Assembly (NCBI GenBank): GCA_001775485.1
Contig: MEWX01000003.1
Location: 1-57,562 of the forward strand
DNA: 57,562 bases
DNA from: Candidatus Adlerbacteria bacterium RIFCSPLOWO2_01_FULL_51_16
Lineage (GTDB): Bacteria > Patescibacteriota > Minisyncoccia > Phycocordibacterales > SBAW01
Direction: 5' to 3'
The notes beneath the pieces were generated by a model. That model had not been told where the DNA came from. It did no database searches and worked only from the letters and a program-made list of their open reading frames with translations. Shown piece after piece: positions 25,118 to 44,554 of the stretch. Made by a program: the position numbers and the translations under genes. Position 1 is the first letter of the stretch; each line of letters opens with the position of its first letter.

Positions 25118-25461
25118 ATATAAAAGTAGTTAGCTAGTAAATCCTAACCATCTATGGTCAGTATACCATTTGTGCACTTGGAGGGATAGCTTACGAACCA
25201 TCAGATGGGAGGAAATGTTCCCTTATCCCAGCGTTTCTCTTGGGCAGATGAGAAGCCTGCTGGCTATCGTTCAATAAAACTGTATCCCTGCCTCGTATAA
25301 CAGAGTTTAGCAGAATTGTGCCGCATTATGAAGAGGGAGCGCCAGCCGTTCTCTCTTTTTGAATTTGGGTGGTACGTGTTTTCCTTTCGAGTTTTTTATT
25401 CGCGGCGGGGATGCCCTATACCAGTTGGAGTATTTTTATATAAACTTCGTCGCTCGGCATC

Positions 25462-25788
25462 CTATCCAAACACTAACACCTTATCTGATTCCTCAATCAT
25501 TTTTACCAAGTCGCTCATAGTAGTAACTGGGCACACTTTGCTCTCGGACTTTAAGCGGATTTTTAGGCAGGTCTCACACGCGGCAACAAAACCCTTGAGG
25601 TCTTTAAACTCTTGCAGTTTCTTGGAGATGTCAAACTGTTCTGTGTCGTGGATGTCTTCAATCTCAACACCCTCACTCATAAGAGAGATTTGAACCGAAT
25701 GCCCCGTTTTCAATGCGGTAATGCCCAAGCGAAGCGTATTCCAGATATGTTCTGGGTTATTGGATTGTAGGATGATTCCCAATTTCAT
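25462..25788 (-). CDS. DsrE/DsrF-like family protein
   Basis: 108 aa; MKLGIILQSNNPEHIWNTLRLGITAL..., conserved Cys region (AACETC) and DsrE-type length. Confidence 0.6.
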   Translation of the reverse strand: MKLGIILQSNNPEHIWNTLRLGITALKTGHSVQISLMSEGVEIEDIHDTEQFDISKKLQEFKDLKGFVAACETCLKIRLKSESKVCPVTTMSDLVKMIEESDKVLVFG

Positions 25789-25796
25789 AGTCAGGT

Positions 25797-26465
25797 TTAG
25801 GAAATGTCTTTTTTGCGTTCCTCAAACTCTTTCTTGTCAATCTCGCCACGGGCGTAGCGTTCTTTGAGGATGTCGAGTGCTGATTTCGAGCCACTGCCCT
25901 TATTTTGATTTGTTAGCCATTTTATAAGTGCCACAATACCCGCGATTATCAGCACCCACCATAGAATCATAAAAATCCAGCCGAAACTACCGAAAGGCGT
26001 AAATCCAAAGTTCATCATAGAATTGTTTGACTGATTAAAACCGAGGGGAGACGACCACCCTCCCCACATCATCTGCATCATCGGCATCCAGCCAATAGTT
26101 CCTACTGGGAATGTTGCGGAGGTATCGCAACTAGATAGACGTTTGCCCATCACTACGTGAATCTGCTCCTCGCCTTCCTCGCCGTGCACCCGCGTCATCA
26201 TAGCGTTCATTGAGGCGTGGGCATCACCCATCATCTGCCCCATAAAGTATTCGCCCAGCGCCCCAAAATCTTCATCAGACAAATCAGCACAAGTGGTCTG
26301 CTTGGCTTGTAACTTCTCCCAAACGATTTTGCCCTCGGCTTCCTCGCGAGCGGTATGGTCATCCGAATCAATCGCAACATTTCTCATCATTCCCTGTGCG
26401 GAAACAATGTTTGAGCTTAATGCAAATAACATTATAGCGATAAGTGGAATGAGGGACTTTTTCAT
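25797..26465 (-). CDS. secreted/membrane Met- and His-rich protein with C-terminal SHOCT domain
   Basis: Signal peptide, Met-rich stretches (GQMMGDAHASMNAMM, GWMPMMQMMWGGW), one TM, and a C-terminal LDILKERYARGEIDKKEFEERKKDI (SHOCT). Confidence 0.6.
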   Translation of the reverse strand: MKKSLIPLIAIMLFALSSNIVSAQGMMRNVAIDSDDHTAREEAEGKIVWEKLQAKQTTCADLSDEDFGALGEYFMGQMMGDAHASMNAMMTRVHGEEGEEQIHVVMGKRLSSCDTSATFPVGTIGWMPMMQMMWGGWSSPLGFNQSNNSMMNFGFTPFGSFGWIFMILWWVLIIAGIVALIKWLTNQNKGSGSKSALDILKERYARGEIDKKEFEERKKDIS

Positions 26466-26845: not shown

Positions 26846-28495
26846 TTATGAGAATATTTTTTCTACAATCTCCTTCAATCTTGTAGGAATGCTGGCAACG
26901 TCAATGTCCTTAAACGTCTTGAATGCCTTAAATGGTTTGTTGCCACCAGCAGGAATAACTACTCCGCCATTTTCGCAAACCTTTTCAAAATTTGGGTCAA
27001 GAACTTCTATGCTGCCGAGTCCTTCGGATAAATTCACCTCGTCTTCAATTTTCTGACTACTTGCTTGATTGTCCGTATCCTTGTCATAAATAACTACATA
27101 GGGAAACTTAAAAGCGTTTAGAACCTTCGAGAAAAATGGTATTGCATCTTTGCTGCCGCATTCCACGATAGTTATGCCGTAATCATAAAAAAGATATTCT
27201 GGTTTTACTTTCTGGGCAATAAGTGGCAAAACAACTTTTTCAGTATCACCTTCAACCAAGACTACTTTTTTACCAAAAAACATCTCACTGCGTTCTGGGT
27301 CAAACTCATTCAAGAGCTTAAAGTTTTTCCTCTCCTCTTCTACTGCAAAAATATCTTTCTGATATTGAATAATCTTAGTTCCAATCTCAAGGTTGTTCTT
27401 TACTGCGATGCCGATTGATTTGTACTCACCCATATCAACAAAGAAGCTGGAGTGTGTAGTAAAAACTACTTGGTCTGTTTTAGTAATTTCTTTAAGCAAG
27501 GCAAACATCGCCCGTTGCATCTGTGGATGTAAGTAAAGTTCAGGCTCTTCAATCCCAAAAATCAGCGCTTTTGCTTTTTCACCCTGCTCCTTCTTGAGTA
27601 AGTCAGCGTAAGCTCGAAAGATTACAAAAATTACCGACCTCTGCATTCCGTGCCCTTTATTTTCTATTGCAGTAGAAATACCGTCATCCACCATTATCTT
27701 TGTCCCAGATTGAAAGACATCTTTCAAGCTCGGTGGCGTTACATCGAGCTTTATTGTTGTGCCTTTCATATGTGCGGAGAGTTTCTCGCTCAACATTGTC
27801 TCGAACTCTTTTAGTTGGGCGATTCTGCCATCTTGTGCATCGTTTTCTCCCATCAATAATTTCGTAAATTGCTCGTTGACCTTTTTAAGTTCCGCATCTT
27901 GCAAAACACTACTAAGCATAGCGTTGATTATCTGCCCAAATCTGGACTTCTCGGTTATTTTTGCCTCTTCCTTAACATCCTTAACGGCTGGAACGTAGAG
28001 AAAGTCTGGTAAGTATCCATTTGCAACTTGTGCCCAACCAAAAGGTTTGGGCTTCCAGAAATACTTTTTATCGGTAGATGTGAACGGTTCAATTTCTTCT
28101 TTATCTGTAATTTCAACCGCGTCCTTTTTATCTTTTTCGTTTTCAAACTTTTCTTCCAAGATAACTGCAAACAATCGTTGCGTTTCTTCACCTTCAAAGA
28201 AATACTCTTTACGAATTATAACAGTCTCTCCGTCTTCCAGTAGATATTTTCCAAAAGTAGTTTTTGCTTCCGCGTTCAAATCACGAAACCAAACTTGGAT
28301 GATAGTCTTCTCACCACAATCATTAAAAAAATGAGCATCAAGTTTTTTCGTATCACTAAAAAATAAGTCCAGCGCTTTTAAGACATTGGACTTCCCAGCG
28401 TTATTCTCTCCGATGAAAGCCATTAAATCCAAAAAATCAATTCGCTCGGACTTAAATGACTTGAAGTTTTTAATAAATACTCTTGAAATTTTCAT
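26846..28495 (-). CDS. OLD-family nuclease (ABC-type ATPase + C-terminal TOPRIM)
   Basis: 549 aa. N-terminus MKISRVFIKNFKSFKSERIDF..FIGENNAGKSN (Walker A, K35), GHGMQR, Walker B IFGIEEPELYLHP, TTHS. TOPRIM motifs VVLVEGDTEKVV and VVIYDKDTD. ATGA overlap with the upstream gene. Confidence 0.85.
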   Translation of the reverse strand: MKISRVFIKNFKSFKSERIDFLDLMAFIGENNAGKSNVLKALDLFFSDTKKLDAHFFNDCGEKTIIQVWFRDLNAEAKTTFGKYLLEDGETVIIRKEYFFEGEETQRLFAVILEEKFENEKDKKDAVEITDKEEIEPFTSTDKKYFWKPKPFGWAQVANGYLPDFLYVPAVKDVKEEAKITEKSRFGQIINAMLSSVLQDAELKKVNEQFTKLLMGENDAQDGRIAQLKEFETMLSEKLSAHMKGTTIKLDVTPPSLKDVFQSGTKIMVDDGISTAIENKGHGMQRSVIFVIFRAYADLLKKEQGEKAKALIFGIEEPELYLHPQMQRAMFALLKEITKTDQVVFTTHSSFFVDMGEYKSIGIAVKNNLEIGTKIIQYQKDIFAVEEERKNFKLLNEFDPERSEMFFGKKVVLVEGDTEKVVLPLIAQKVKPEYLFYDYGITIVECGSKDAIPFFSKVLNAFKFPYVVIYDKDTDNQASSQKIEDEVNLSEGLGSIEVLDPNFEKVCENGGVVIPAGGNKPFKAFKTFKDIDVASIPTRLKEIVEKIFS

Positions 28496-29373
28496 AACGT
28501 TGATTCATAGGACTGCCTTATCAAATCCAAAACGTATGACACATCGTCTTTGGATTTTAATTTGATTCTTCCTTTGTAGCCCCATTCAAAGGAGCTAATA
28601 TCTTTTATCATCCCTTTCGGGTCAATTTTGTGGTCATAACGGGAATCTCGTACTAAAACGTCTATATAGCTCTTGCCGAACTCAAAGCGCACAAAACTCT
28701 TTGTGGTACGGTAGGTAATACCTACTTTTTGGTCTGCTTTTTCTTCGACGTTCGCCCATTTCTTTATTTCTTCTTGCAACGCATAAAAAATTGCCTTAAC
28801 GTCGTCGTTAACATTACTCAAATGGTAATCAACATTGTAAGCCCCCTCCTCTTTTCTCTTTGTAGTTTCGGCAACAGGCTTTACTGTCTCGGAGCTATAC
28901 ATTGTTTCCAAGAACAAAATATCGGAGCTGTATGGAGTGTACTTTATCAATTCGACACTGTTTTTTACTTGGCGCGCTGCCGAAAGAGTGTAACGGTCAA
29001 AACCTTGGGCAATGAGTATAAGTCGAGGACTGTCCCAAATAACCTTGCTTTCCTTACCGAGTTTATCTGCTACTAATAAATCAAATAGACGCTTATTTTC
29101 CTTGAGCCAATCAATATAGAAAAGTCCTTGGGATAGAATGTTATCCTTTTCTCCCCACTTATATTCGATAATGACTGGTGTGCCCGTCTCATCAATCGCC
29201 AACGTATCAATGCGTCCATCCTTTGTTTTATACTCATTTCCTAAAAAGCGCAGTCCCAGCAAACTTTCAAGATTTTCTGCAAAAAAATCTCGCAAAGCCG
29301 CTTCGTCCTTAAATTGGCGAAGGTCAACTGGAACTTGATGGGCTTTCTTACTTTTGATTTGAAAGAGTGCCAT
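28492..29373 (-). CDS. NucS/DUF91-like PD-(D/E)xK nuclease-fold protein with DUF5655-like C-terminal domain
   Basis: 293 aa. KDGRIDTLAIDETGTPVIIEYKWGE gives D...D...ExK (D56/D61, E70, K72). The C-terminal half (ITYRTTKSFVRFEFGKSYIDVLV...) resembles the domain usually fused to DUF91. Family assignment is from memory only. Confidence 0.55.
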   Translation of the reverse strand: MALFQIKSKKAHQVPVDLRQFKDEAALRDFFAENLESLLGLRFLGNEYKTKDGRIDTLAIDETGTPVIIEYKWGEKDNILSQGLFYIDWLKENKRLFDLLVADKLGKESKVIWDSPRLILIAQGFDRYTLSAARQVKNSVELIKYTPYSSDILFLETMYSSETVKPVAETTKRKEEGAYNVDYHLSNVNDDVKAIFYALQEEIKKWANVEEKADQKVGITYRTTKSFVRFEFGKSYIDVLVRDSRYDHKIDPKGMIKDISSFEWGYKGRIKLKSKDDVSYVLDLIRQSYESTL

Positions 29374-29374
29374 A

Positions 29375-31984
29375 TTAGTTTGCTAAAGATTGACTTATAA
29401 ATTGTTGGTAACTCTCGACTTCCTTGTATTTCACTTCAATGACTTCAAAATGCTTCTTGGCAGAACTGATTTTGGCTTGTTCAGATGGTCGGAGATTACC
29501 AATATCGCCCTTCGTTTCAATCACAAAATAAACGCGCTCCCTTTCTTCATTCCCCTGCAAGTCGCGTTTGGCAGTAACGATTGCCCAGTCGGGATTGTAG
29601 CCGCCAACGGGAGTTTCAACTTTGAACCAGTTAGGCAACTTGATGAACAGTTTAATACGCTCGTCGCTGTCCAGTTCAACCGCGAAATTCTTTTCAACAT
29701 CAGAGTCATACACCACCGCGTCATAGATGGAGTTCTTCACGGGCTGAATTACGTCCTTGTAGCTTGGAATGTGCTCGAATTGGCTTACAGAGTAATTGTC
29801 GGAAACAATTTCATAACGAACTTGGTCAACATAATCCTTGAGCAATCCTTCTTTGATGATGCGTGATACTTCAAAGCAAAATCTTTCAGGGTTATTTAGA
29901 AACGCACTAACGTTATTAGCTTTAGTAAGAATCGCGGCAACAGTTTGACGCGTCAGTTTAGTTTCGTTCTTAATCAGCTCAACACAATCAATGACTCGGC
30001 TCATTTGACTTAGGTCTTCGGCTCTTGTGCCAATAACTCGTGCCGTAACTCCGCCTTTGCCAATATCAACACCAGCACGCTCAACCCGAACTTGCGGCTT
30101 GGCAATTCTTAATTGTTGAATCCTTGCGGCGCAACTCTCAACAAGGCGCTCACTGTTTACCTTCACAAAATACCTCGTCTTCTTCGATATACGCTCCCAG
30201 ATGGCACTAAAGTCGTTGTCCTTATCAAAACCTTTCTTGAGCTTCACTGTATGCTTACGCTTGGCGTTATAAGGCAACGGCGGGGCTTTGTAGATGCCAT
30301 CCTCAACCAACTCGCCTTGGAGTTGCCCAACATACTCTGCGTAGCTTTCATTGGCAACAACGGAGAGCAAATTGACGTTTTTTAGAAAGACGCGCTCGCC
30401 GTCCTGATTGACGCATAGACGCATACCGCGTCCAATCTCTTGCCGCTTGCGAATGGTTGAGATGGTTTCCCGTAGTGTGCAGATATTGAAAATGTTTGGA
30501 TTGTCCCACCCCTCCTTGAGCGCGGAGTGAGAGAAGATAAACTCGGTTGGCTCATCAAAAGAAAGAAGCCGCTCCTTGTCTTTCATTATCAGCTCGTATG
30601 CTTCTTGGTTCTCGGCAATACTTGATTCTCTTTCAAGATATTCTTCGCCGCGCTTGGCGAAATAACCCTTGTGCACGTGGTCAGCATCCAGCGCCTTCAG
30701 TTTGTATTCATCTTTGAGGCGATTGAACTCTTTAACAAATGTTTTGCGAATGTAGCCGTCTGATTGAACATAATTATCAACTTTGTCTATAAAGAACAAA
30801 GAGAGCACTTTAATGTCCATCTCTCGCAACTGCTCCCGCTTTTCAAAATGGCGGCGTATGGTTTGTTCAATCTGCTCACGCATTACTTGTTCGCGGTTAC
30901 CTCCGATTCCTTCGCCCTGCTTAATTTCGATATGGTTACGAAAACGAATCTTGCCAAACTGCCCGATGTCGGGAGCATCTGCATCAAGCGCTTCCACGAT
31001 GTAACCCTCATACACATCGTTATTGGTCTTCTGCGCCAAGTCATCACCTTGCTTGAGCATTAGGCGCTTCTTTTTAGGGTTGCCGCTCGCGTCTTTCGCT
31101 ATTGCTTCAACTTTCGCCTTAATAACTTTGCCTGCCGCAACAGATGATAGGTTAAGGTAGGGACGGGATATGCCCGTGTCATCGTCAGTAACAGAATACA
31201 CCTCAATCTTCTTCACCAGTCCCAGTTGGTAAGCATCAAAGGGTGTGAGCTGATACATCAAGTTGTAGAGATTACGGTGCGTTGCAGAATAGCGAAGGCG
31301 GAATAACGAGTTAAAGTTTTTGAGTCCCTCTTTTGTTGCTTCGCCCTCCATATTCTGCGGCTCATCAAGAATCAGAATTGGATTGGTCTTTTGGATAAAA
31401 CTTATCGGTTGCTCACCCTGCATCTGGTCTCGCGCGGCGTAAAGCACATTCTTATCGCTGTTGAACGCTCCAACTGTCATCACCATTATGTTGATGTTGC
31501 TTGAGTCGGCGAAATGTTTTACCTGTGAGATATTTTTTGATTGGTATTCATAGAAGCGATATGGGACGTTATCGTATAGCTCGGCAAAATGTTCTTTGGT
31601 AATTTGGAGCGCTTTCATAACCCCTTCGCGGATGGCGACAGAAGGAACTAAGATAATAAACTTTTTCCATCCAAAGCGTTTGTTGAGTTCAAAAATGGTG
31701 CGGAGATAAACATAGGTTTTACCCGTGCCCGTTTCCATCTCAATCGAAAAGTCAAAGTCATCAACCACGCCACCATTGGTAATCTTGTTACGCTCCTGCA
31801 CTTTGTGAACGTTATTAAGAATCTCCTCTTGGGAGAGCGTGAGGTAGTTTGGATAGATGCCCAAAAGTCCGCTCCCAGCAATTATTTTACTTGCCGTTGC
31901 TTTCTCTTGTCCTTCAAAAGCATCAACGATAGCGTTGATTGCTTCAATCTGAAAATCTTGGTTGGCATCAAACTTAAACTTCAT
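29375..31984 (-). CDS. res: Type III restriction enzyme, Res subunit (SF2 helicase + PD-ExK nuclease)
   Basis: 869 aa; motif I METGTGKTY, motif II LILDEPQNMEG, C-terminal nuclease NPDWAIV...YFVIETKGD. ATGA overlap with the mod stop. Confidence 0.88.
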   Translation of the reverse strand: MKFKFDANQDFQIEAINAIVDAFEGQEKATASKIIAGSGLLGIYPNYLTLSQEEILNNVHKVQERNKITNGGVVDDFDFSIEMETGTGKTYVYLRTIFELNKRFGWKKFIILVPSVAIREGVMKALQITKEHFAELYDNVPYRFYEYQSKNISQVKHFADSSNINIMVMTVGAFNSDKNVLYAARDQMQGEQPISFIQKTNPILILDEPQNMEGEATKEGLKNFNSLFRLRYSATHRNLYNLMYQLTPFDAYQLGLVKKIEVYSVTDDDTGISRPYLNLSSVAAGKVIKAKVEAIAKDASGNPKKKRLMLKQGDDLAQKTNNDVYEGYIVEALDADAPDIGQFGKIRFRNHIEIKQGEGIGGNREQVMREQIEQTIRRHFEKREQLREMDIKVLSLFFIDKVDNYVQSDGYIRKTFVKEFNRLKDEYKLKALDADHVHKGYFAKRGEEYLERESSIAENQEAYELIMKDKERLLSFDEPTEFIFSHSALKEGWDNPNIFNICTLRETISTIRKRQEIGRGMRLCVNQDGERVFLKNVNLLSVVANESYAEYVGQLQGELVEDGIYKAPPLPYNAKRKHTVKLKKGFDKDNDFSAIWERISKKTRYFVKVNSERLVESCAARIQQLRIAKPQVRVERAGVDIGKGGVTARVIGTRAEDLSQMSRVIDCVELIKNETKLTRQTVAAILTKANNVSAFLNNPERFCFEVSRIIKEGLLKDYVDQVRYEIVSDNYSVSQFEHIPSYKDVIQPVKNSIYDAVVYDSDVEKNFAVELDSDERIKLFIKLPNWFKVETPVGGYNPDWAIVTAKRDLQGNEERERVYFVIETKGDIGNLRPSEQAKISSAKKHFEVIEVKYKEVESYQQFISQSLAN

Positions 31985-33723
31985 ATTGTTTTTAATTCCA
32001 CGTTCAGCCCAAGATTTGCTTTAGCGCTGTCATCGAGGGCACTATCCAAGCAAATAAAGACCTTCCCTTTATAATTCTTGCCCGTTAGTTCGCTTACGGT
32101 CTTATCGTCAATCTTCTTGTCGAGGCATACCAAAAGTCGTTTCTCGCCATCGGAAACAACATAAACATCATTCTTCCCAAGTTTAGTTTCGTTGACTTTA
32201 GAGTTCAGAGAAAGCCCTTCTTTGACAATGTTCTCATAAACCATATCAACGGCTTTGGTATCATCAAACAGTTTAGCTTGCTTGGCTTTTGCGAGATAAC
32301 TTTCAAATGTCTTCTTGTTCTCCTCCTCGGATTTTGTGGGGTCAAACTCAAAAGCATTTTCAGGGTAGTTAGATTCAGCAAGTTTGAATGTCTTGAAAGT
32401 TGCCTCAATCTGTTTGAGGCGGTCTTTGGCAATATCTGCGACGGTATTATGCCCAGATTTATAATCTGGGCTTTTCACATCAACTACCTCTGGCAACTGA
32501 ACTAAAATAAACTTTCTTGAACCCGTGTCAGCGTAATTTTGCTCCAACACTGCTTCCGCCGTTGAACCAGAACCAGCAAAAAAATCGAGCACGAGAGCGT
32601 TTTTATCATTAACAACTTGAAGCATCCTTTGGATAAGTTTAGGATTCTTGCCACCATTTTTTATCCAAGTTGAATCCGATTCAATAACATCCGTCCAGTT
32701 GGTATCAAGATTAGTTTCTTCGCTTGCGGGTAATCTATATTGCGGCTTACTAGTATTCGGAGATAAACGCAAATCGCCAGCATCAATCATTGTCATTGCT
32801 CTTTCCTTCTCATACATCCAATGCCTACCTGTCGGCGGCTTCTGCCCAAATAATTCGTATTCCATTGTTGGTCGCACCCCTGGCGCATCAAATGCGTGCC
32901 ATCGTTCCTCCTTCTTTTGATACTTTTTAGGAGGCACTACTAAAGTAGCGTCGCTTTTTGCGTAGCATAAAATGTAACCTACCCCTTGATTGAGGGCTTT
33001 TACTGTGTCAGTTTCTTGGATATTCTTTTTTACTCTTGAAACAAAAATTGCATTTCTAAAGTTTTCTTCACCAAACACTTCGTCCATTATCATTCGCAAA
33101 TGGTGAGCTTCGTTATCGTCAATGCTTACGAAAATAATGCCGTCATCGCGTAGTAGATTCCACGCCAACTTAAGGCGCGGATACATCATTGAAATCCAAT
33201 CGCTGTGATAACGTCCGCTTGTTTCTCGATTCGTGGTCAAGCTCGCACCGTTCCCGTCTTTCTGTCCTGTTTGCTTGAGGTAATTTGAGAGAGGCGCGGA
33301 GAAATCATCGTGATACACAAAGTCGCCGCCAGTGTTGTATGGAGGGTCAATGTATATCATTTTTACCTGCTCAAAGTATGCCTTCTGAAGAAGTTTGAGG
33401 ACTTCAAGATTGTCGCCTTCAATAAAGAGGTTCTCACTTTCATCGAACTTCACGCTCTCATCTTTGACGGGACGAAGCGTAGCTTTGCTTGGAATCAAGA
33501 CATTCTTGATGGCGTTACTTTTGCCAGCCCAAGAAAAGTTAAACTTCTCGATTCGTTCATCAATCGCACTACCAAGAACGGCTCGGAGTTTGTCCCAGTC
33601 AATCTTATTCTCACTAAATGCTTCGGGGAGGACTTTGTGCAACTCCACTAACTTCTCCTCGGAAAGATTTGAGGAGGTGAGATTTACTTTTTTGTGATTC
33701 TTTTTTGATGTATCCATATCCAT
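31981..33723 (-). CDS. mod: Type III DNA methyltransferase, Mod subunit (beta-class N6A/N4C)
   Basis: 580 aa; IYIDPPYNTGGDF (motif IV) precedes LDFFAGSGSTAEAV (motif I), the beta-class order typical of Type III Mod. Confidence 0.88.
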   Translation of the reverse strand: MDMDTSKKNHKKVNLTSSNLSEEKLVELHKVLPEAFSENKIDWDKLRAVLGSAIDERIEKFNFSWAGKSNAIKNVLIPSKATLRPVKDESVKFDESENLFIEGDNLEVLKLLQKAYFEQVKMIYIDPPYNTGGDFVYHDDFSAPLSNYLKQTGQKDGNGASLTTNRETSGRYHSDWISMMYPRLKLAWNLLRDDGIIFVSIDDNEAHHLRMIMDEVFGEENFRNAIFVSRVKKNIQETDTVKALNQGVGYILCYAKSDATLVVPPKKYQKKEERWHAFDAPGVRPTMEYELFGQKPPTGRHWMYEKERAMTMIDAGDLRLSPNTSKPQYRLPASEETNLDTNWTDVIESDSTWIKNGGKNPKLIQRMLQVVNDKNALVLDFFAGSGSTAEAVLEQNYADTGSRKFILVQLPEVVDVKSPDYKSGHNTVADIAKDRLKQIEATFKTFKLAESNYPENAFEFDPTKSEEENKKTFESYLAKAKQAKLFDDTKAVDMVYENIVKEGLSLNSKVNETKLGKNDVYVVSDGEKRLLVCLDKKIDDKTVSELTGKNYKGKVFICLDSALDDSAKANLGLNVELKTI

Positions 33724-33736
33724 TTCAAATTAGGGC

Positions 33737-33967
33737 TTACTTCTTTTTTCTCCGAAATTTTGCTACCTCGACTTGGAAGTTAGCGTTGTCCCGAAGAAAC
33801 TTCTCGTAGGATTCTTTAGGGATTCGCCAGTAACCAATCTTTATTGCGTGTAGCCGCTCATCTTCAATATAGCGAAGGATGCTTCGTGGATGGACTCTTA
33901 ACTTATCGGCTACTTCACGGAGAGTATAAAAATCTCGTTCTTCTTTTGGTTGTTTGGGTTTGCGCAT
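33737..33967 (-). CDS. excisionase-family/MerR-like HTH DNA-binding protein
   Basis: 76 aa; FYTLREVADKLRVHPRSILRYIEDERLHAIKIGYWRIPKESYEKFL. Lies 13 nt upstream of mod. Confidence 0.7.
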   Translation of the reverse strand: MRKPKQPKEERDFYTLREVADKLRVHPRSILRYIEDERLHAIKIGYWRIPKESYEKFLRDNANFQVEVAKFRRKKK

Positions 33968-34034
33968 ACAAGAACAGTTTACCGCATTTTTTGTAACTGT
34001 GCAAATGTGTACACTTGTGATAAAATGATTTTAT
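33968..34034. promoter_or_regulatory. divergent promoter/operator region of the element
   Basis: Minus strand: -35 TTGCAC (34004-33999), 17-nt spacer, -10 TAAACT (33981-33976), ATG 8 nt later. Plus strand: extended -10 TGATAAAAT (34018-34026), ATG 8 nt later. Perfect palindrome GTGTACAC at 34007-34014 lies between them. Confidence 0.5.
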
Positions 34035-34775
34035 ATGGAAATGGATATGGCAACCACAACACAAGAAAAAGACATCCAAGCTATTGCCGACATCATCCAG
34101 CAGCACTACCTTGCCAGTGGAGATGAGTCAGTTGGCGTACCCGTGAAATACTTTGAGCAAAAGAGCTTTGGGCATCACGACGTCAAGATTGCTTTATCAA
34201 TTCTCACAAAGAGTGGGGCTGTCCAGAATTATCATCGTTGCTGGGGACATAACGATATAGATAAACAAAGTGGCACTGTGTCATTCACGGAAGTTGATAC
34301 AAAAGAGCCCAAAGAGAAGTTTGAGGGGGTTGTTCAAGCATTTGAGGCGTATCACATACTCATTAAGTCGGACATCCTAAAACAGCTTGCGCAGCCCTCA
34401 AAAAAGAGTGCTCGCTCAAGCAAAGCGAAGGAAGATGTTGCTATACAGCTTTTTCTTGATAATGACGGCGATTTATATAAAGAGCCCAAAAAATCATATT
34501 GCTACCCACTACTCCAAAACAAAGAGCCATTAAAGTTGATTCTTTACTTCATCAAAAACCCGAATCGTAGCTATGAAGAATCAACCCAAATGATTGCGCT
34601 ATCGCTGGAAAAAGACCCTCAATACTTGAGAGCCGAAATTGGCAAGATAAATCGCATTGCCTTAAATCGGCTCGGTTTAGGTAAGGAAAAATTGATACAA
34701 GCAAAACAAAACAGTGGCTACCGATTGAATCCAAAGATAAAAATTACTGCTGAAAAAGAGATACTCCTAAGATAA
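34035..34775 (+). CDS. hypothetical protein with C-terminal winged-helix-like segment (putative element regulator)
   Basis: 246 aa. The C-terminus ...IGKINRIALNRLGLGKEKLIQAKQNSGYRLNPKI resembles OmpR/CadC-type wHTH ends. Confidence 0.5.
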   Translation: MEMDMATTTQEKDIQAIADIIQQHYLASGDESVGVPVKYFEQKSFGHHDVKIALSILTKSGAVQNYHRCWGHNDIDKQSGTVSFTEVDTKEPKEKFEGVVQAFEAYHILIKSDILKQLAQPSKKSARSSKAKEDVAIQLFLDNDGDLYKEPKKSYCYPLLQNKEPLKLILYFIKNPNRSYEESTQMIALSLEKDPQYLRAEIGKINRIALNRLGLGKEKLIQAKQNSGYRLNPKIKITAEKEILLR

Positions 34776-34805
34776 CCATAGATACTGTGGACAAGTTCGA
34801 GTAAG

Positions 34806-34830
34806 GCAGCTCAAAACGAGCTGCTTTTTT
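34806..34830 (+). terminator. intrinsic terminator
   Basis: GCAGCTC-aaaac-GAGCTGC followed by T6. Confidence 0.75.
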
Positions 34831-34891
34831 CGTTTCAAAAACTACCTTCGGATTATGTTCGGCTACGGCACGCGACTGTTAAGTTTTCTGT

Positions 34892-35143
34892 ATGAAGTCA
34901 AATACAGAAAGCCAAGTCGCAATTTCTGATTTAGGACTCGCAGCGCTATTGGTAACTCTCCAATTCGAACTGGTTAGTTTGGAGAGAACGAGCGAAAAGC
35001 GAGTTGACTTCGTATTCGCAAACTCGAAAGAGGTCGAACGAGCAATCGCGGATTTTTGGGAAGACAAGAATGTAAACGTCCCGATTCAAACGCTGTTCAA
35101 TAACTTTCGTCTTCTGAAGAATCGCCTTTACGCCTTCAAATAA
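34892..35143 (+). CDS. small hypothetical protein (phage/element-type; possibly DUF5659-like)
   Basis: 83 aa ORF in the element's plus-strand module. Family guess is from memory only. Confidence 0.45.
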   Translation: MKSNTESQVAISDLGLAALLVTLQFELVSLERTSEKRVDFVFANSKEVERAIADFWEDKNVNVPIQTLFNNFRLLKNRLYAFK

Positions 35144-35144
35144 T

Positions 35145-35327
35145 ATGCGCCTCAAGCCAGAACAATTTGAGCGTTTGAGAAAGCCATTCGATAAGTATGG
35201 GGCATTTGAGGGGCGTACGAAGGATGAAGTCGAAGAAATACTCAATGGCGTGATGAATTATTACCTCACACTCGCAAATATAAACCTCCGCTTAAAGCGG
35301 GAAGAAAAAAACAATGGAACAAAATAA
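35145..35327 (+). CDS. small hypothetical protein
   Basis: 60 aa; starts 2 nt after the previous stop and overlaps the PrimPol ORF start. Confidence 0.4.
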   Translation: MRLKPEQFERLRKPFDKYGAFEGRTKDEVEEILNGVMNYYLTLANINLRLKREEKNNGTK

Positions 35328-37374
35328 TATGGAAACAAATAATCAAATCTTAGAAGCTGCTTTACACTACGCTGAACTTGGCTTGTCAGTCATACCTGTT
35401 GGGCGAGATAAAAAACCCCTCATCGAATGGAAGAAGTACCAAGAAGAGCGCGCATCACAAGAACAAATTAAAGAATGGTGGGCACAATTTCCAGACGTAA
35501 ATGTTGGAGTCGTAACGGGTAAAATATCTGGGATTGTTGTCGTGGATGTTGAATCTGGTGGCGATGTGAAGAATCTGCCGCCCACTGTCATATCAAAAAC
35601 GGGGGGTGGTGGCTGGCACTGTTTCTACTTGTACCCTAATCTGCCAGTCCAAAATGGTGTGAGAGTACGAGAGTTGACCGACATTAGAGGAGATGGTGGG
35701 TATGTTGTGATGCCGCCATCACTCCACAAATCTGGGAATCGGTATGAATGGTTAGTCTCGCCAAACGATGCGGATTTTGCCGAATTGCCAGAATGGGTAT
35801 TACAAAAAACTTCAAAACAAAAGCAGAAAACCAATTGGCAAGAGTTCATCTCAAGGGAAAATCCAAATGGCGCAAGGAATATGAGCGCGACACAGCTTGC
35901 GGGCAAGTTGCTCTATCACATACCGATAGAGTTTTGGGATGTTTCTGGTTGGGCAACGATGAAAGAGTGGAATGCACAAAACAATCAACCACCATTGACC
36001 GAGGGTGAATTGAGAGGAGTTTGGGATAGTATCAAGAAATTGGAACTTGGAAGACGGGAAAAGGCATCATCAACTCCAACGGCACCTACCAAACGCGTTT
36101 TTGAAGCGCCGATGGGAGCAGATGTAACGTTTGCGGAATGGCGCGAGACAGTCCAACGAAACTTTCCAGAACTGGTATTCCCTGCGGAGGTTTCCCTTGC
36201 TGTCGTATCTCAAATACTTATTACAGAAATCACCAATCCTTTCGCATTGGTGCTTGTAGATGTGCCTGCATCGGGAAAAACGATAACGTTGAACTTTTTT
36301 GCTGAAATTGAAGGACTTTCGTATGCGACTGATAAGTTTACACCTGCCTCATTTGTATCAAATGCAGCAAACGTGAAAAAGAAAGACCTTCAAGAAGTAG
36401 ATTTACTTCCGCGCATACAGTACAAAACTCTGCTTGTCCGCGACTTTGCAACTTTATTTTCCAAGCGGGATGACGACTTAGCTGAATTGATGGGATTGCT
36501 CACGCGCGTCCTTGATGGCGAGGGATTAAATACTGATTCAGGAGTACACGGCAAGCGGCACTACGTTGGAGAGTACCTTTTTATGATGCTGGGCGCATCA
36601 ACGCCTATACCTCCAAAAGTCTGGAAACTAATGGGCGCCCTCGGTTCACGTTTATTCTTCTTAAAAATGAATGCGCAGGACAAATCAGAAGAGGAGTTGA
36701 TAGAACAGCTTGTTACTCAAACAGCTAAAAATAAAGAGCGGGAATGCCGAACAATTACAAAGGACTTTCTCTACACTCTTTGGCGTAAGTATCCGAATGG
36801 TTTTGATTGGGATAGGGCAAAGGATAAAAAAGAATTTCTTGCAGTTATCGTTCGTTGCGCTCAACTTCTTGCGCACTTACGAGGCAATATAAATGTTTGG
36901 AAGGAGTGGGACGAGGAAGGCAGAGTGTACAACTACAACCCGCCCACTATTGAAAAGCCAGACCGCATTAACCAACTTCTATACAACCTTGCTCGTGGAC
37001 ACGCATTAGTGTGCGGCAGAACGCAAATCAATGAGGATGATTTGAAATTGGTTATTGAAATAGCGACTGATAGCGCTCCCACCATACGCTCGAAGCTGTT
37101 TCGGAAACTGCTTGAAAAGAATGGGGTGATGAGCACGGGAGAAGTCGAGATAGCGCTTGATTGTTCCAAACCAACCGCATTAAAGGAGATGGAAACGCTA
37201 AAGTTTTTGGGCATTTGCTACTTCGCATCAAACAGTTATGGACAGGTCGGCGAACCAGAAAAAGAGATACACCTTGTCGAAGCATTCAAGTGGTTTCTGG
37301 GTGAAGAATGTATACGGCTTCGAGGTATCCCCCTGCCACCGAAGCAAGAACAGCTACTTGGAGGCGATGGGTAA
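35314..37374 (+). CDS. bifunctional primase-polymerase (PrimPol) N-terminal domain fused to a P-loop NTPase-like C-terminal region
   Basis: 686 aa. LGLSVIPVGRDKKPLIEWKKYQ, VGVVTG..SGIVVVDVE (DxE-type), GGGGWHCFY, IRGDGGYVVMPPSLH. Later LVLVDVPASGKT (Walker A-like). Confidence 0.8.
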   Translation: MEQNNMETNNQILEAALHYAELGLSVIPVGRDKKPLIEWKKYQEERASQEQIKEWWAQFPDVNVGVVTGKISGIVVVDVESGGDVKNLPPTVISKTGGGGWHCFYLYPNLPVQNGVRVRELTDIRGDGGYVVMPPSLHKSGNRYEWLVSPNDADFAELPEWVLQKTSKQKQKTNWQEFISRENPNGARNMSATQLAGKLLYHIPIEFWDVSGWATMKEWNAQNNQPPLTEGELRGVWDSIKKLELGRREKASSTPTAPTKRVFEAPMGADVTFAEWRETVQRNFPELVFPAEVSLAVVSQILITEITNPFALVLVDVPASGKTITLNFFAEIEGLSYATDKFTPASFVSNAANVKKKDLQEVDLLPRIQYKTLLVRDFATLFSKRDDDLAELMGLLTRVLDGEGLNTDSGVHGKRHYVGEYLFMMLGASTPIPPKVWKLMGALGSRLFFLKMNAQDKSEEELIEQLVTQTAKNKERECRTITKDFLYTLWRKYPNGFDWDRAKDKKEFLAVIVRCAQLLAHLRGNINVWKEWDEEGRVYNYNPPTIEKPDRINQLLYNLARGHALVCGRTQINEDDLKLVIEIATDSAPTIRSKLFRKLLEKNGVMSTGEVEIALDCSKPTALKEMETLKFLGICYFASNSYGQVGEPEKEIHLVEAFKWFLGEECIRLRGIPLPPKQEQLLGGDG

Positions 37375-37438
37375 TCAATAAAGCGAATCTGACGCTGTGC
37401 ATAAAGGTCGAAAATTAACAACAATAAACATTAAATCT

Positions 37439-37693
37439 ATGGAAGAAAAAGGAATTGTGTTTAGTATCGTGTTTGATGAGGAGGAAGTTCAGAGTTTCGC
37501 GGAAGCAAACTTTGAGCGAGAACTGACAGAGCTGGAGTTGAACCGAATGAAAATGCACTGGTACGAAGATGGCGCTGCGTATGGGGCAAGAACGGAACTG
37601 CTGGCAAGCGCTATAAAAATGGCGATAAATACAAAGGATTACAATTTCGAGCGAACGGATAGAGATTATTTGGAAAGTGGTGGCGGGAAGTAG
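37439..37693 (+). CDS. small hypothetical protein
   Basis: Track ORF 37397..37693 starts with GTG. The ATG at 37439 (MEEKGIVFSIVFDEEE...) is preferred. Confidence 0.4.
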   Translation: MEEKGIVFSIVFDEEEVQSFAEANFERELTELELNRMKMHWYEDGAAYGARTELLASAIKMAINTKDYNFERTDRDYLESGGGK

Positions 37694-37731
37694 TGCTGTT
37701 TCTTGAGCTGAAACGTAGTGTGGATAGCACC

Positions 37732-37759
37732 TTGACACAAATGTACACCTTGCTATACT
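37732..37759 (+). promoter_or_regulatory. near-consensus sigma-70 promoter
   Basis: TTGACA (37732-37737), 16-nt spacer, TATACT (37754-37759). Confidence 0.6.
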
Positions 37760-37766
37760 GGTAACG

Positions 37767-37878
37767 TAGCCTACATCCGTATATAAGTCGCAGGGTATTT
37801 TTATCCTTCAATCCAGAAAGGGGTTCATCCTCTGTCTGCCATTGAAGGATGTCCTTGCGACATTCGGATGTGGGCTAC
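37767..37878 (+). ncRNA. 112-nt extended hairpin starting at the predicted +1 (candidate sRNA or 5' leader structure)
   Basis: Three stacked helices: 14 bp (37767-37780 / 37865-37878, one G-U), 9 bp (37788-37796 / 37853-37861) and 10 bp perfect (37803-37812 / 37841-37850). The apical loop is 28 nt. Confidence 0.45.
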
Positions 37879-37936
37879 CAGATAGATGTGGTGAGCCCCT
37901 TTTTGGTTTATGGGGATTGCCGCGAGCATATAACTT

Positions 37937-38377
37937 ATGAACGGCAACGACAACAAAAAAAGTGGTTGGGAAACCATAAAATATCTTTCAGGAATTATTT
38001 GTATGGGATTCTTGTACGGGATATTCTCATTGGTCTTTCTGGCTATGTTACTGCAATGGACTTTAGAAATAGATATTACCGAGTTTGATAAAATATACCG
38101 TCTTCTATTTCTTGTTTGGGCTGGATGGGTAATAGGTTTGCACGTATGGCTGCGGAAAGAAAAAAGAATACCGCAATCGCCAAAAGAAGGAACACAAACA
38201 AAGAAGGAGAACCAGGAAACAGACCCGCGAAGTTATGACCCGTTCTACATATCGGACAAGTTCAATCCTAATCTTAGTAAGTTAAACAAGAAGAACACAG
38301 AAGAAGAATCGGATGTAGTGTTCTTCCGTAAAAATCCGTCGAAATCAAATGAAAATAACGAACAAACAAAATTATGA
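37937..38377 (+). CDS. small membrane protein, function unknown
   Basis: 146 aa; two hydrophobic helices then a charged tail. 4-nt overlap with the recombinase start. Confidence 0.5.
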   Translation: MNGNDNKKSGWETIKYLSGIICMGFLYGIFSLVFLAMLLQWTLEIDITEFDKIYRLLFLVWAGWVIGLHVWLRKEKRIPQSPKEGTQTKKENQETDPRSYDPFYISDKFNPNLSKLNKKNTEEESDVVFFRKNPSKSNENNEQTKL

Positions 38378-40023
38378 CCAACAATCAACCAAAAATTAAA
38401 GCGGTACTTTACTGCCGCGTATCATCTAAAGAGCAAGAAGAGGCTGGCTATTCTTTGCCGTCTCAAGAAAAGCTCTTAAAAGAGTATGCCGATAGAAAGG
38501 GCTTTGTCATTGCAAAAACTTTTTTAATCGCGGAATCTGCAAGTGGAGCAAAGCAGAGAAAAGTGTTTAGCGAGATGATTAAGTTCACGGAAAAAAACAA
38601 GGTTGCCAATATCCTTTGTGAGAAAGTTGACCGACTTACAAGAAATCTGAAAGATGCCTTAGCTGTAAACGATTGGCTTGAAGAAAAGCCAGAGCGACAA
38701 GTACACTTTGTCAAAACAAATCTCGTCATCCACAAAGGCGCGAAGTCCGATGAGAAGTTTCGTTGGGATATTGAGATAGTGCTCGCCAAAAAATACATTG
38801 CCAACCTTTCAGAAGAGATACGCAAGGGACAAAAAGAAAAGATAGCTCAAGGGTGGCTTCCAACCAAACCACCGCTTGGCTACAAGACAGTTGGTGAAAA
38901 AGGGCATAAAACCCAAGTGATTGAAACAGAAATAAACAAGAAAGGAGAGGAAGTAATCAGTGGGACTGCTCGGCTTATCAAACAAATGTTTGACTGGTAT
39001 GCCACGAGCAACTACTCCCTCTCAAAACTTGAGGTTGAGCTGTATAAGGCTGGATTGCGCACAAGAAGCGGTAAGAAGCTCGGTATCAGCCGCATCCATC
39101 TCTTGTTGTCAGAGCCATTCTACTACGGCAAAATCCGTTGGAATAACGAACTTTATGAGGGCAAGCAAGAGCATCTTATTGGCAAAGATATATTCGATAA
39201 AGTGCAAACTATCCTCAAAAGGAAAATTAAAAATCCTCATTTCGCTACGCACAATTCCTTATTCAAAGCGAAAATCCATTGTGAGCATTGTGGTGGAATG
39301 GTTACTTGGGAACGCCAGAAAGGTCATTGGTATGGGCATTGCAACAATCACGGTGAGTATCGCAAGTGTCCAAAGAAGACCTACATTCGAGAGGAGAAGG
39401 TTGAGGAGCAACTTATAGGATTCTTTGAAACAATAGCACCGAAAAATAACGAAGTACTTGAAGTGATTGAGGAAATCGTAAGACAAGAGAACGCTCAAAA
39501 CATTATGGAGCGAGAAACTGAAATTACGAGATTGAGCGGGTTACTTGCCTCAATACGAAAACAGAAAGATAAATACTTTGAGGCGAAGATAAATGAGAAA
39601 GCTCCACTTGAGTTTTGTGAAAGAAAAATTGCCGAGTGTGTTGAAGAAGAATCAAATCTTGAATCAGCTCTGATTCTTGTAAGTGATAAAAGTGATGAGT
39701 ACCAGCAACTACGCTTGGTGATTCACGAACTTGCTTACAAAGCGAAGGAAATATACGAAAAAGCCACTATTGATGAGAAGAGATTACTGTTCGCTCAAAT
39801 CTTTACGAACATCGTCCAAGATGGGCTTAGAATCAAGCCAAACTACACTTTAGCGGCTGAATACTTGGCTACTTGGGCGCCGAAGCTCAATCAGGATTAC
39901 GAACGCGAGAAAAGCCTTACTACAAAAGCAAAAACAGGCAATTCTGTGCCTGTCTCTACTGTCTGGTGCGCAGGAGAGGATTTGAACCTCCAATCCCTTG
40001 CGGGAGCTACCACCTCAAGGTAG
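38374..40023 (+). CDS. large serine recombinase (integrase)
   Basis: 549 aa. Resolvase catalytic domain (KAVLYCRVSSKEQ...GYSLPSQ), recombinase domain, Zn-ribbon (CEHCGG...HCNNHGEYRKCPKK) and a coiled-coil tail. The last 60 nt overlap tRNA-Leu antisense. Confidence 0.9.
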   Translation: MTNNQPKIKAVLYCRVSSKEQEEAGYSLPSQEKLLKEYADRKGFVIAKTFLIAESASGAKQRKVFSEMIKFTEKNKVANILCEKVDRLTRNLKDALAVNDWLEEKPERQVHFVKTNLVIHKGAKSDEKFRWDIEIVLAKKYIANLSEEIRKGQKEKIAQGWLPTKPPLGYKTVGEKGHKTQVIETEINKKGEEVISGTARLIKQMFDWYATSNYSLSKLEVELYKAGLRTRSGKKLGISRIHLLLSEPFYYGKIRWNNELYEGKQEHLIGKDIFDKVQTILKRKIKNPHFATHNSLFKAKIHCEHCGGMVTWERQKGHWYGHCNNHGEYRKCPKKTYIREEKVEEQLIGFFETIAPKNNEVLEVIEEIVRQENAQNIMERETEITRLSGLLASIRKQKDKYFEAKINEKAPLEFCERKIAECVEEESNLESALILVSDKSDEYQQLRLVIHELAYKAKEIYEKATIDEKRLLFAQIFTNIVQDGLRIKPNYTLAAEYLATWAPKLNQDYEREKSLTTKAKTGNSVPVSTVWCAGEDLNLQSLAGATTSR

Positions 40024-40050
40024 TGCGTCTACCAATTTCGCCACCTGCGC
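39964..40050 (-). tRNA. tRNA-Leu (GAG), class II, CCA encoded
   Basis: Hand-folded: acceptor GCGCAGG/CCTGCGC, anticodon stem CTACC/GGTAG with loop TTGAGGT, long variable arm CCC-GCAA-GGG, T arm GGAGG-TTCAAAT-CCTCT, ACCA end. Confidence 0.88.
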
Positions 40051-40065
40051 GTATGCGAACGAGAT

Positions 40066-42140: not shown

Positions 42141-42152
42141 TTGAGAATTCTA

Positions 42153-43097: not shown

Positions 43098-43098
43098 G

Positions 43099-43170: not shown

Positions 43171-43177
43171 GGGGTGC

Positions 43178-43792: not shown

Positions 43793-43797
43793 GAAAG

Positions 43798-44130: not shown

Positions 44131-44132
44131 CG

Positions 44133-44552: not shown

Positions 44553-44554
44553 AT

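Follow-up and report, generated by a model that had tools for sequence, protein, structure and literature searches.

How bacteria of the candidate phyla radiation (CPR) acquire their defences against phages is, to our knowledge, poorly understood; their genomes are tiny, and few mobile elements are known from them. The question takes a concrete form at one locus of Candidatus Adlerbacteria bacterium RIFCSPLOWO2_01_FULL_51_16, in a stretch of 57,562 nucleotides (contig MEWX01000003.1; the whole of this stretch is hereafter called the window), where an AT-rich block that carries a defence operon adjoins the 3′ end of a gene for tRNA-Leu(GAG). What kind of element is this block, and how does it enter the chromosome? 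We conclude that positions 25176-39969 very probably constitute a 14.8-kb serine-integrase element of a Paceibacterota (CPR) bacterium, with the attachment site attP located inside the element's own integrase gene.

Empty-site alleles define the borders of the element

An earlier note on this locus, made from the sequence alone, had described an AT-rich integrative element of about 13 kb between 26846 and 40050. Composition is indeed far from uniform when computed: the element as mapped below has a GC content of 42.4% and the flanks one of 50.7%, 1-kb windows inside and outside it differ (Mann-Whitney p 5e-8), and sliding-window GC lies between 0.37 and 0.46 over approximately 26.5-40 kb, with values of about 0.50 on either side. 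Insertion at the 3′ end of tRNA-Leu(GAG) was likewise upheld, as ARAGORN places this tRNA on the minus strand with its 3′ end facing the block, and the host neighbours are those that the note had named, rplS on the right and an EF-Tu-D2-like gene and DUF475 on the left.

The borders were mapped with contigs of the same population, which were retrieved from public assemblies of Rifle-aquifer metagenomes by means of the exact rplS protein. Two of these contigs, L001 (JGI 3300025323) and L005 (ERZ27254846), pass from rplS and tRNA-Leu directly to the EF-Tu-D2-like gene and DUF475, exactly the empty-site variants that had been set beforehand as the test of the insertion, whereas L002-L004, L006 and L009 are occupied. 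In blastn comparisons the empty contigs align to window positions 50542-39966 and then to 25175-20347, with at least 99.9% identity and a 4-bp overlap, and the flanks of empty and occupied contigs are at least 99.9% identical to each other. Positions 25172-25175 and 39966-39969 both read GTGC, the empty site joins 25175 to 39966, and this junction is identical, and precise to 4 bp, in two independent assemblies. The alignment of empty with occupied contigs gives an integrative element of 14,794 bp (25176-39969), and the block is a genuine insertion.

These borders differ from those proposed earlier. The left border falls at 25172-25176, 1.67 kb further left than 26846, making the element 14.8 kb rather than about 13 kb in length, and the right border falls at 39965/39969 rather than 40050, the tRNA being host DNA except for its encoded terminal CA. 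The additional 1.67 kb contains a DsrE-like gene, a gene for a SHOCT-domain protein and a 380-bp spacer; this part was probably missed because the leftmost 1.7 kb of the element has an intermediate GC content (45%) and a host-like GC at third codon positions (GC3, 0.53).

Empty and occupied alleles coexist within single samples, as seen with L001 and L080 in 3300025323 and with L005 and L081 in ERZ27254846; further Rifle samples with both alleles are JGI 3300025317, SRR3989344 and SRR3989338. Two further contigs, L007 and L010, terminate precisely at 39966, which is the usual sign of an assembly fork. All 15 contigs that carry the DsrE-like protein have the EF-like gene adjoining it and hence represent the integrated state, and the element is nearly invariant among contigs, with 4 single-nucleotide polymorphisms (SNPs). 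Two host haplotypes can be told apart by an indel and substitution polymorphism at 40052-40059, 90 bp outside the junction in the interval from tRNA-Leu to rplS. Each haplotype is found with the element and without it; repeated insertion or excision, or else recombination within 90 bp, is therefore required. The order rplS, tRNA-Leu(GAG), DUF475 is common in related genomes, and for this reason we regard the empty state as ancestral. The closest rplS matches, at 72% identity or less, come from metagenome-assembled genomes (MAGs) of Patescibacteria/Paceibacterota, many of them labelled Candidatus Adlerbacteria. On this comparison of alleles, the element is real and probably active.

Outside the element, GC content also dips to about 0.44 in the 1-kb windows 3001-4000 and 13501-14500, where the local value is 0.50. 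The host DNA to its right is dense in tRNA genes at 42065-45653 (Val, Arg-TCT, Ser, Arg-GCG, Arg-CCG and then Lys), in an order that is largely kept across the retrieved Paceibacterota loci.

The crossover lies at the tip of the tRNA and within the integrase gene

Read on the tRNA strand, GTGC becomes GCAC, which comprises the last two bases of the acceptor stem, the discriminator A and the first C of CCA. In the empty allele GCAC is followed by AAATGG, with no encoded CCA, whereas the occupied allele reads GCACCA followed by GAC, so that the encoded terminal CA (39964-39965) is supplied by the element and the rest of the tRNA by the host. The window has eight tRNA genes, and a terminal CCA is encoded in just two of them, tRNA-Val and the occupied tRNA-Leu. 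Directly 3′ of tRNA-Leu, a hairpin of 14 bp is followed by UUUUUGCUUUUG, and none of 200 shuffled sequences folds as well; an equivalent hairpin (dG -17, z -3.2) is present in a related element, L091. The hairpin at 39927-39960 is likely to act as a replacement terminator for tRNA-Leu, the element bringing a terminator where the downstream DNA of the tRNA has been displaced by insertion.

The same crossover, at the discriminator base, lies within the reading frame of the large serine recombinase (LSR) that occupies the right end of the element. That this frame crosses the junction and is split by integration had escaped the earlier note. The element contributes codons 1-532 of the integrated gene (to 39969), whereas the final 17 codons (AGEDLNLQSLAGATTSR), together with the stop codon, are provided by the antisense strand of the host tRNA-Leu. 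When 39969 is joined to 25176, as in a reconstructed excised circle, the frame continues into an LSR of 565 amino acids ending in TWRDSLRTIRWEEMFPYPSVSLGQMRSLLAIVQ, the 33 codons of this alternative tail being situated at the left end of the element (25176-25274). The attP sequence inferred at this junction is ..CTACTGTCTGGTGCACTTGGAGGGATAG.., and the hairpin at 25330-25358 is likely to serve as the terminator of the full-length LSR gene in the circle. The linkers of LSR homologues contain recurrent motifs (KGKEVVFATSSP, KKSTFVLS) that look like translated hairpins and A-runs.

The B′ arm of attB is antisense acceptor and T arm, GCAGGAGAGGATT-TGAAC, and the P′ arm of attP reads ACTTGGAGGGATAGCTTA-CGAAC, placing xGAAC 13 nt from the core in B′ and 18 nt from it in P′, in this one arm only. 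For LI integrase, the motif bound by the zinc ribbon (DNA-binding domain 2, DBD2) is 5 bp nearer the centre in attB than in attP, and the corresponding shift for SPbeta is 4 bp (PMC11722253). As a hypothesis, the placement of xGAAC would fit this 5-bp rule for the B′/P′ arm; on the same hypothesis, close relatives would be found on tRNA-Leu, tRNA-Lys and tRNA-Asn because the T arm is nearly universal. The core shared by attP and attB is 4 bp (GTGC) in the window element and 8 bp in L091. A search for a displaced tRNA-Leu fragment at 23.7-27.0 kb gave chance k-mers only, one of them within the DsrE-like gene, in keeping with the earlier statement that no copy of the tRNA 3′ end exists on the left and with the very short shared sequence expected of a serine recombinase. 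The locus accordingly departs from an Islander-type tDNA island, with no tRNA fragment at its left end, 4 bp shared between its ends, and a serine rather than a tyrosine integrase.

We propose that the LSR recombines attP, in its own 3′ coding region, with an attB that would consist of the 3′ tip of tRNA-Leu(GAG) and downstream DNA, by crossover within the GTGC mapped from the empty-site contigs. The antisense acceptor and T arm would form the B′ half-site, and a similar P′ half-site would hold its xGAAC 5 bp further out. Integration keeps the tRNA intact and adds CCA and a terminator hairpin by way of the antisense of LSR linker codons, as is visible in the sequence. It also splits the LSR gene, again as the sequence displays: the body keeps its promoter and gains 17 arbitrary antisense-tRNA residues, and the conserved 33-residue tail and the gene's terminator come to lie at the opposite end of the element, at a distance of 14.7 kb. 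On excision the 565-codon gene would be restored, the PrimPol protein would replicate the circular element, and the payload would be a defence operon of four genes (Type III Mod, Type III Res, PDC-S18 and OLD).

The integrase is a large serine recombinase with an exchangeable tail

The LSR contains the Pfam domains Resolvase (4.2e-20), Recombinase (2.5e-13) and Zn_ribbon_recom (1.6e-7). Residues S17, R62, E83, D86, R87 and R90 of the catalytic region are invariant in 71 sequences, and alignment to the catalytic domain of TP901-1 integrase (3bvp) pairs the motif RVSS of the LSR with RVST. An AlphaFold2 model of the 565-aa form, built from the 71-sequence alignment with a mean confidence score (pLDDT) of 86, comprises a catalytic domain, a recombinase domain and a zinc ribbon with an inserted coiled coil (long helices at 359-476); past the zinc ribbon it shows a conserved helix (493-519), a linker with pLDDT of 50-61 and a helical tail (541-565) with pLDDT of 86-94. 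Foldseek matched the integrases of SPbeta, phiC31, Bxb1 and LI with E values of 1e-17 to 1e-11, the former being that of SPbeta. By sequence, PDB chains are matched via the catalytic domain only, and identity to deposited phage and plasmid integrases is 22-28% among the matches listed; a scan of IMG/VR gave no relative of the LSR. By its domains, catalytic residues and modelled fold the protein is assigned to the large serine recombinases and is predicted to catalyse recombination of attP with attB.

More than 1,400 homologues were found at E 1e-30 or better, the top 119 of which are 51-85% identical to the LSR. Few of them are source-named (Nomurabacteria, Yanofskybacteria), and sequence comparison indicates that intact-tail homologues are common in Parcubacteria. 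The C-termini of these 119 proteins vary. A conserved tail, LAW(R/K)D(S/T)LRTxxWxxxFPxPxVSLxQIxxLLxxV, is present in 20, with ..LLALV or ..LLAIV as the final residues of many tails; at least 22 end in peptides of antisense T-arm type (..DSNL, ..DSNP, ..GIEPT, ..IRTHD); about 55 stop 2-4 residues past the crossover position; and 22 have other endings. In the single short-ending example examined, protein P0043 of contig L087, the element is integrated at tRNA-Asn(GTT) and the antisense tRNA leads to an early stop.

A profile made from 19 intact homologue tails matches the plus strand of the window at 25179-25271 (E=6e-17), directly after the core, and a further match falls at the left end of another integrated element, L091/L094. 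That the tail is under selection as protein is supported by several lines of evidence. Across five DNA copies, variable sites within the tail are distributed over the three codon positions as 13/12/23 of 32, and synonymous changes make up 93 of 191 pairwise codon differences. Against 1.84 billion representative proteins the profile gave 104 matches, nearly all of them short open reading frames (ORFs), 32-221 aa long, with the tail at their C-terminus; LSR sequence lies upstream of the tail in only 8 of the 104. The short ORFs resemble genes called on tails that were orphaned at attL junctions, and such integrations thus appear to be common. The first ~24 bp of the tail are conserved also as DNA (GCTTGGAGGGATAGCTTACGAAC; ..CTTGGAGGGATAGCTTACGAAC), being kept in 5 elements, and likely represent the P′ half-site.

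These comparisons suggest that the LSR has two forms according to the state of the element, one of 549 aa when integrated and one of 565 aa in the circle. The 90% cluster of the LSR holds the 549-aa form and fragments only. A 9.2-kb contig, L083, carries an intact 555-aa LSR followed directly by HTH_17 and cargo, then by p288, DUF5659 and a primase, with no tRNA; this is the unintegrated gene order, in which the primase would lead back to the LSR if the molecule is circular, and a check for circularity found no terminal overlap.

Most likely, the tail has its role while the element is episomal, where it would act in integration or in the control of integrase level or directionality, and the tail-less form would still support excision. 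A bolder possibility, which we advance tentatively, is that the tail is a built-in sensor of the state of the element: the full-length form of the circle would be integration-competent or short-lived, and the tail-less form of the chromosome would differ in directionality or stability. Coupled with this, one subunit would read the universal acceptor and T arm of the tRNA, giving rise to a widespread tRNA-targeting clade that carries defence genes through the CPR. If so, part of the role of a recombination directionality factor (RDF) or repressor would be encoded in the position of attP, and reading of the tRNA by one subunit would explain how 79%-identical integrases move among tRNA-Leu, tRNA-Lys and tRNA-Asn. 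The exchange of the tail poses a simple and testable question about the control of directionality.

Gene content and relatives

The features of the element are collected in Table 1. Pfam, PADLOC and PHROGs agree with the LSR, PrimPol, excisionase-type HTH (helix-turn-helix), restriction-modification (R-M) and OLD genes listed earlier, and the central idea of the note, a serine-recombinase integrative element with defence cargo, holds. A winged HTH regulator and small ORFs described as phage-like were not recovered, p246, p146, p98 and p60 giving nothing above noise in Pfam, PHROG, PADLOC or NCBIfam.

Table 1. Features of the integrative element and its target in the window (dG, folding free energy; z, z-score)
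Feature	Position	Strand	Evidence
attL core GTGC, left junction; crossover dinucleotide within	25172..25175		L001/L005 join 25175 to 39966
Detached LSR 3′ end, 33 codons (TWRDSLRTIRWEEMFPYPSVSLGQMRSLLAIVQ) and stop	25176..25277	+	Tail profile E=6e-17
Terminator-like hairpin and T-run, 55 nt past tail stop	25330..25358	+	dG -16.7 kcal/mol, z -2.0; weak alone
DsrE/DsrF-like small protein, 108 aa, cargo	25462..25788	-	Pfam PF02635 1.6e-6; absent from empty-site contigs
SHOCT-domain protein, 222 aa, read as membrane protein, cargo	25797..26465	-	Pfam SHOCT 1.2e-8; inside insertion
OLD-family nuclease (ATPase and TOPRIM), last gene of defence operon	26846..28495	-	AAA_15 6.8e-46; OLD-like_TOPRIM 1.8e-18; PADLOC Old 7.2e-86
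PDC-S18 candidate defence protein (NucS-like nuclease fold and DUF5655)	28492..29373	-	PADLOC 3e-68; Pfam DUF5655 3e-11
Type III restriction enzyme Res	29375..31984	-	PADLOC REase_III 1e-243; Pfam ResIII, RE_endonuc
Type III methyltransferase Mod	31981..33723	-	PADLOC MTase_III 7e-149; Pfam N6_N4_Mtase
HTH_17 (MerR/excisionase-type) DNA-binding protein, head of leftward operon	33737..33967	-	Pfam 4.7e-10
p246, first gene of rightward backbone operon	34035..34775	+	No family match
DUF5659 protein, backbone	34892..35143	+	Pfam 1.6e-10
p60, conserved 60-aa protein	35145..35327	+	Kept in relatives
PrimPol replication protein (AEP primase-polymerase, PriCT_1 and C-terminal region)	35314..37374	+	Pfam Prim-Pol 7.4e-32; PHROG DNA primase 1.9e-25
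p98	37397..37693	+	ORF; no family match
Top sigma-70-like promoter match in element, TTGACA-16-TATACT with TG, 5′ of p146 and LSR	37732..37759	+	11/12 positions; consensus match only
p146, stop overlaps LSR start	37937..38377	+	In all occupied contigs; no family match
Large serine recombinase (LSR), integrated form, 549 aa	38374..40023	+	Resolvase, Recombinase, Zn_ribbon_recom; PHROG integrase 1.2e-71
Hairpin and U-run directly 3′ of tRNA-Leu, within LSR linker codons	39927..39960	-	dG -19.5 kcal/mol, z -5.1
attR core GTGC	39966..39969		Antisense: GC of acceptor stem, discriminator A, first C of CCA
Host tRNA-Leu(GAG), target	39964..40050	-	ARAGORN; Rfam tRNA 54 bits

The defence operon Mod-Res-PDC-S18-OLD runs leftward through 26846-33723, with overlaps of 4 nt between Mod and Res and between PDC-S18 and OLD, and with Res and PDC-S18 1 nt apart; these four genes may form one composite defence system instead of three independent ones. 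Adjoining genes for an N6/N4 methyltransferase (Mod) and for an SF2 helicase with endonuclease (Res) identify a Type III R-M system. The OLD gene combines the ABC-type ATPase and C-terminal TOPRIM of its family, lacks a Gabija GajB, retron or PARIS AriB partner, and has PDC-S18 as its upstream partner. Phase variation of the Type III genes was considered, as gene-call lengths differ among contigs, and was rejected: the DNA is identical except for the 4 SNPs, and the differences reflect choices of start codon. The DsrE-like and SHOCT genes (25462-26465) have a host-like GC3 of about 0.53, compared with 0.38-0.50 in the remainder of the element, and may be recently captured CPR chromosomal DNA.

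The HTH_17 protein matches PHROG 66, 'excisionase and transcriptional regulator' (1e-8), and the PrimPol protein has a weak match among PDB sequences to pRN1 ORF904. An Rfam scan of the element identified the tRNA and no other non-coding RNA, and a search for iterons or origin repeats gave nothing convincing.

Relatives share a backbone of HTH_17, DUF5659, p60, a replication gene and the LSR. HTH_17 is present in L087, L091/L092 and L083, and DUF5659 in L091 (57% identical), L083 and L087; genes of similar size and position to p246 occur in relatives, with no detectable sequence similarity. The most widely conserved accessory protein is p60, whose counterparts of 60-66 aa (window 35145-35327; L084 9754-9954; L087 9586-9774; L091 6999-7181) are 48-51% identical in L091 and L087 and 38% identical in L084. 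As p60 adjoins the LSR, just upstream, in L084 and L087, it is a candidate recombination directionality factor or regulator.

Other parts of the element vary. The replication gene is PrimPol here, DnaG-Zn and AAA_25 in L091, and a Toprim primase in L083. The cargo is Type III R-M, PDC-S18 and OLD here, AAA_15 and GmrSD in L091, and a head-protease-like gene in L083. The L091 LSR, 79% identical to that of the window, runs into tRNA-Lys(CTT). At 2351-4870 in L083, a head-maturation-protease-like gene (phrog_53, 7.7e-32) lies beside unannotated genes of 247 and 352 aa, a possible capsid module hinting that some members of the family are satellites or mini-phages.

Contig L087 contains two LSRs, one of 596 aa with an intact tail (1947-3737) and one of 525 aa that runs into tRNA-Asn(GTT) (10001-11578), the former sitting directly left of the cargo of the element that owns the latter; the arrangement resembles two elements in tandem or nested, the integrase body of one being joined to the tail of its neighbour. 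Three soil-metagenome contigs of 150-488 kb (L084-L086) carry an intact-tail LSR of 557 aa (55% identical) in the company of a TrwB-like coupling protein, AAA_15, an OLD-family gene, an N6 methylase and ArdC, which may represent a larger conjugative or plasmid-like setting of the same integrase family. Defence genes adjoin the LSR elsewhere too, OLD-family in L084 and AAA_15 in L091.

In a distant LSR clade (25-29% identical) from Adlerbacteria and Nomurabacteria MAGs, the ORF likewise runs antisense into a tRNA, at tRNA-His(GTG) in L040 (6141-15992) and at the rplS-linked tRNA-Leu(GAG) in L020 (10788-12470) and L038 (3250-4938). L040 carries a Mod gene and a PrimPol 46% identical to that of the window. 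The tail profile has no match at L040, L020 or L038.

Alternative explanations

Several observations weigh against a mobile element whose integrase is remodelled by its own integration. A 25-mer across the inferred attP had 0 exact matches in JGI metagenome contigs, and the exact 565-aa integrase is absent from a collection of 15 billion proteins; as the circular junction was not found, we infer excision of this copy from the presence of both alleles in the population and from the fact that every part is intact. The copies hardly differ in sequence (4 SNPs), and one acquisition with later recombination close to the site could account for the polymorphism. No route for transfer from cell to cell is apparent among the genes encoded in the element. 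The P and B arms are variable and have no clear shared motif, and the best dyad symmetry in attB and attP over all centres, 10/24, equals the 90th percentile of the null (10). The P′ DNA site alone can explain conservation of the first ~8 tail codons, and the support for a role of the tail in integrase function comes from sequence and models. Finally, intact-tail LSRs occur inside the 150-488-kb contigs and in the apparent tandem array of L087, so that an intact tail is no proof of a free circle.

The strongest competitor concerns the tail rather than the element: the overlap of attP and LSR might be mere genome compaction, the tail dispensable or generic, both forms of the integrase alike, and directionality set by a separate RDF (p60, p146 or HTH_17). 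We regard this as a serious possibility, if somewhat short of an even chance. The tail sits behind a flexible linker of low model confidence, integrated copies bear arbitrary tails of widely differing length while the family remains abundant, the conserved 60-aa protein beside the LSR in relatives is a plausible classical RDF, and some homologues retain only the D-x-x-R-T segment, which corresponds to the P′ DNA motif, before they diverge. Mere compaction, however, would leave unaccounted for a 33-residue tail that is conserved among proteins just 51-61% identical and modelled as confident helices, an excess of third-codon-position variation that extends past the ~24-bp half-site, and orphan tails at element ends that remain open and intact. 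That the block is ancestral and the empty allele a deletion derivative, or that the element is an immobile, domesticated defence island with a decayed integrase, is very unlikely. The failure to find the circular form in assemblies or the protein collection would be expected on such an account, as would an integrated LSR that lacks the conserved tail; but the 4-bp-precise junction common to two independent assemblies, the empty arrangement in related genera, the foreign composition, the intactness of every ORF, detached tail included, the host indel 90 bp away that is found with both states, and the 79%-identical LSR relatives at other tRNAs with other cargo all speak for mobility.

A phage satellite, similar to phage-inducible chromosomal islands (PICIs) or tycheposons, that is excised and replicated on induction by a helper and packaged in helper capsids seems unlikely to us. 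Its layout would fit (integrase, Xis-like HTH, primase-type gene, small ORFs with no match, cargo, tRNA site), the relative L083 has the head-maturation-protease-like gene, and the tycheposons of streamlined Prochlorococcus share this logic, some of them with LSRs (10.1101/2020.12.28.424599). Yet Pfam, PHROGs and NCBIfam reveal no terminase, capsid, portal or packaging-redirection gene in the element, four ORFs of which are unannotated; its LSR has no relative in IMG/VR, and no helper phage is known. A complete or defective prophage is more improbable still, to the point of being hardly credible: PHROG matches exist for the integrase, the excisionase-like HTH and the primase, but the 14.8 kb hold no structural, lysis or packaging genes in the same three databases, and a defence operon fills half of the element. 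Pfam also detects no relaxase, type IV coupling protein or type IV secretion system domains in the ORFs of the element, and it thus lacks the genes expected of an integrative and conjugative or integrative and mobilizable element (ICE or IME); a TrwB-like gene is found only in the distant relative L084. By gene content, the element is neither a prophage nor an ICE. We favour a serine-integrase element with attP in its own integrase gene.

Comparison with known systems

The LSR of the window shares its domain order, its fold and a very short core with the integrases of phiC31, Bxb1, A118/LI, SPbeta (SprA) and TP901-1. It differs from these phage enzymes in targeting the 3′ tip of a tRNA gene, in having attP within its own ORF, and in a C-terminus that changes on integration. 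In 2015, serine integrases were not known to target tRNA genes (Islander paper, PMC4383910); the present family extends them to tRNA-tip targets. New here is a tRNA-tip-targeting serine-integrase element of CPR bacteria with attP in its own integrase gene, and a literature search, the incomplete coverage of which precludes proof of novelty, found no publication linking CPR bacteria with serine integrases. Integrases of this family, having as attB a near-universal feature of tRNAs, are candidates for genetic tools in organisms that have few or none.

Among elements of streamlined hosts, tycheposons are likewise small, devoid of conjugation genes and located at tRNA sites, with an integrase, a primase or helicase, swappable cargo, and empty and occupied alleles (10.1101/2020.12.28.424599). 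Of these, however, 910 of 937 have tyrosine recombinases, they belong to another phylum, their cargo serves mainly nutrient acquisition, and a split integrase is not described in the text consulted; the likeness, drawn from published description only, is one of functional analogy. Horizontally acquired islands with R-M systems have been reported in MAGs of aquifer Patescibacteria (PMC12455944), as composition-based IslandViewer predictions with no mapped att sites, integrase mechanism or empty-site alleles. By comparison, the element described here, with borders mapped to the base, both alleles in the same aquifer samples and varied cargo on one backbone, provides a concrete vehicle for defence genes in the CPR.

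Integration-dependent immunity in the mycobacteriophages BPs and Brujita offers a parallel for the exchange of the tail: there, too, attP lies in a coding gene, and integration alters the C-terminus of a protein and with it activity or stability. These phages differ in that it is the repressor gene that is split, recombination is carried out by a tyrosine integrase, and an ssrA-like degradation tag is the part removed. In the 'suicidal' archaeal integrases of SSV type, attP is in the frame of a tyrosine integrase that targets tRNA genes, and the gene is split on integration (PMC7253208); in IntP of the Myxococcus phage Mx8, attP also lies in the reading frame (Tojo et al. 1996, as cited in PMC4383910). 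The window LSR has in common with these systems an attP inside the integrase gene, splitting of that gene or alteration of its C-terminus by integration, and tRNA targets. SSV-type integrases and IntP are tyrosine recombinases, of unrelated fold and chemistry, and the likeness to SSV-type integrases is an analogy rather than membership. Moreover, SSV-type integration leaves two inactive pseudogenes, whereas the window LSR keeps all its catalytic and DNA-binding domains together and exchanges only a 33-residue tail. The family of the CPR element can be seen as the equivalent, among bacterial serine integrases, of the 'suicidal' tyrosine integrases of archaea, in a milder version in which only a conserved tail is swapped.

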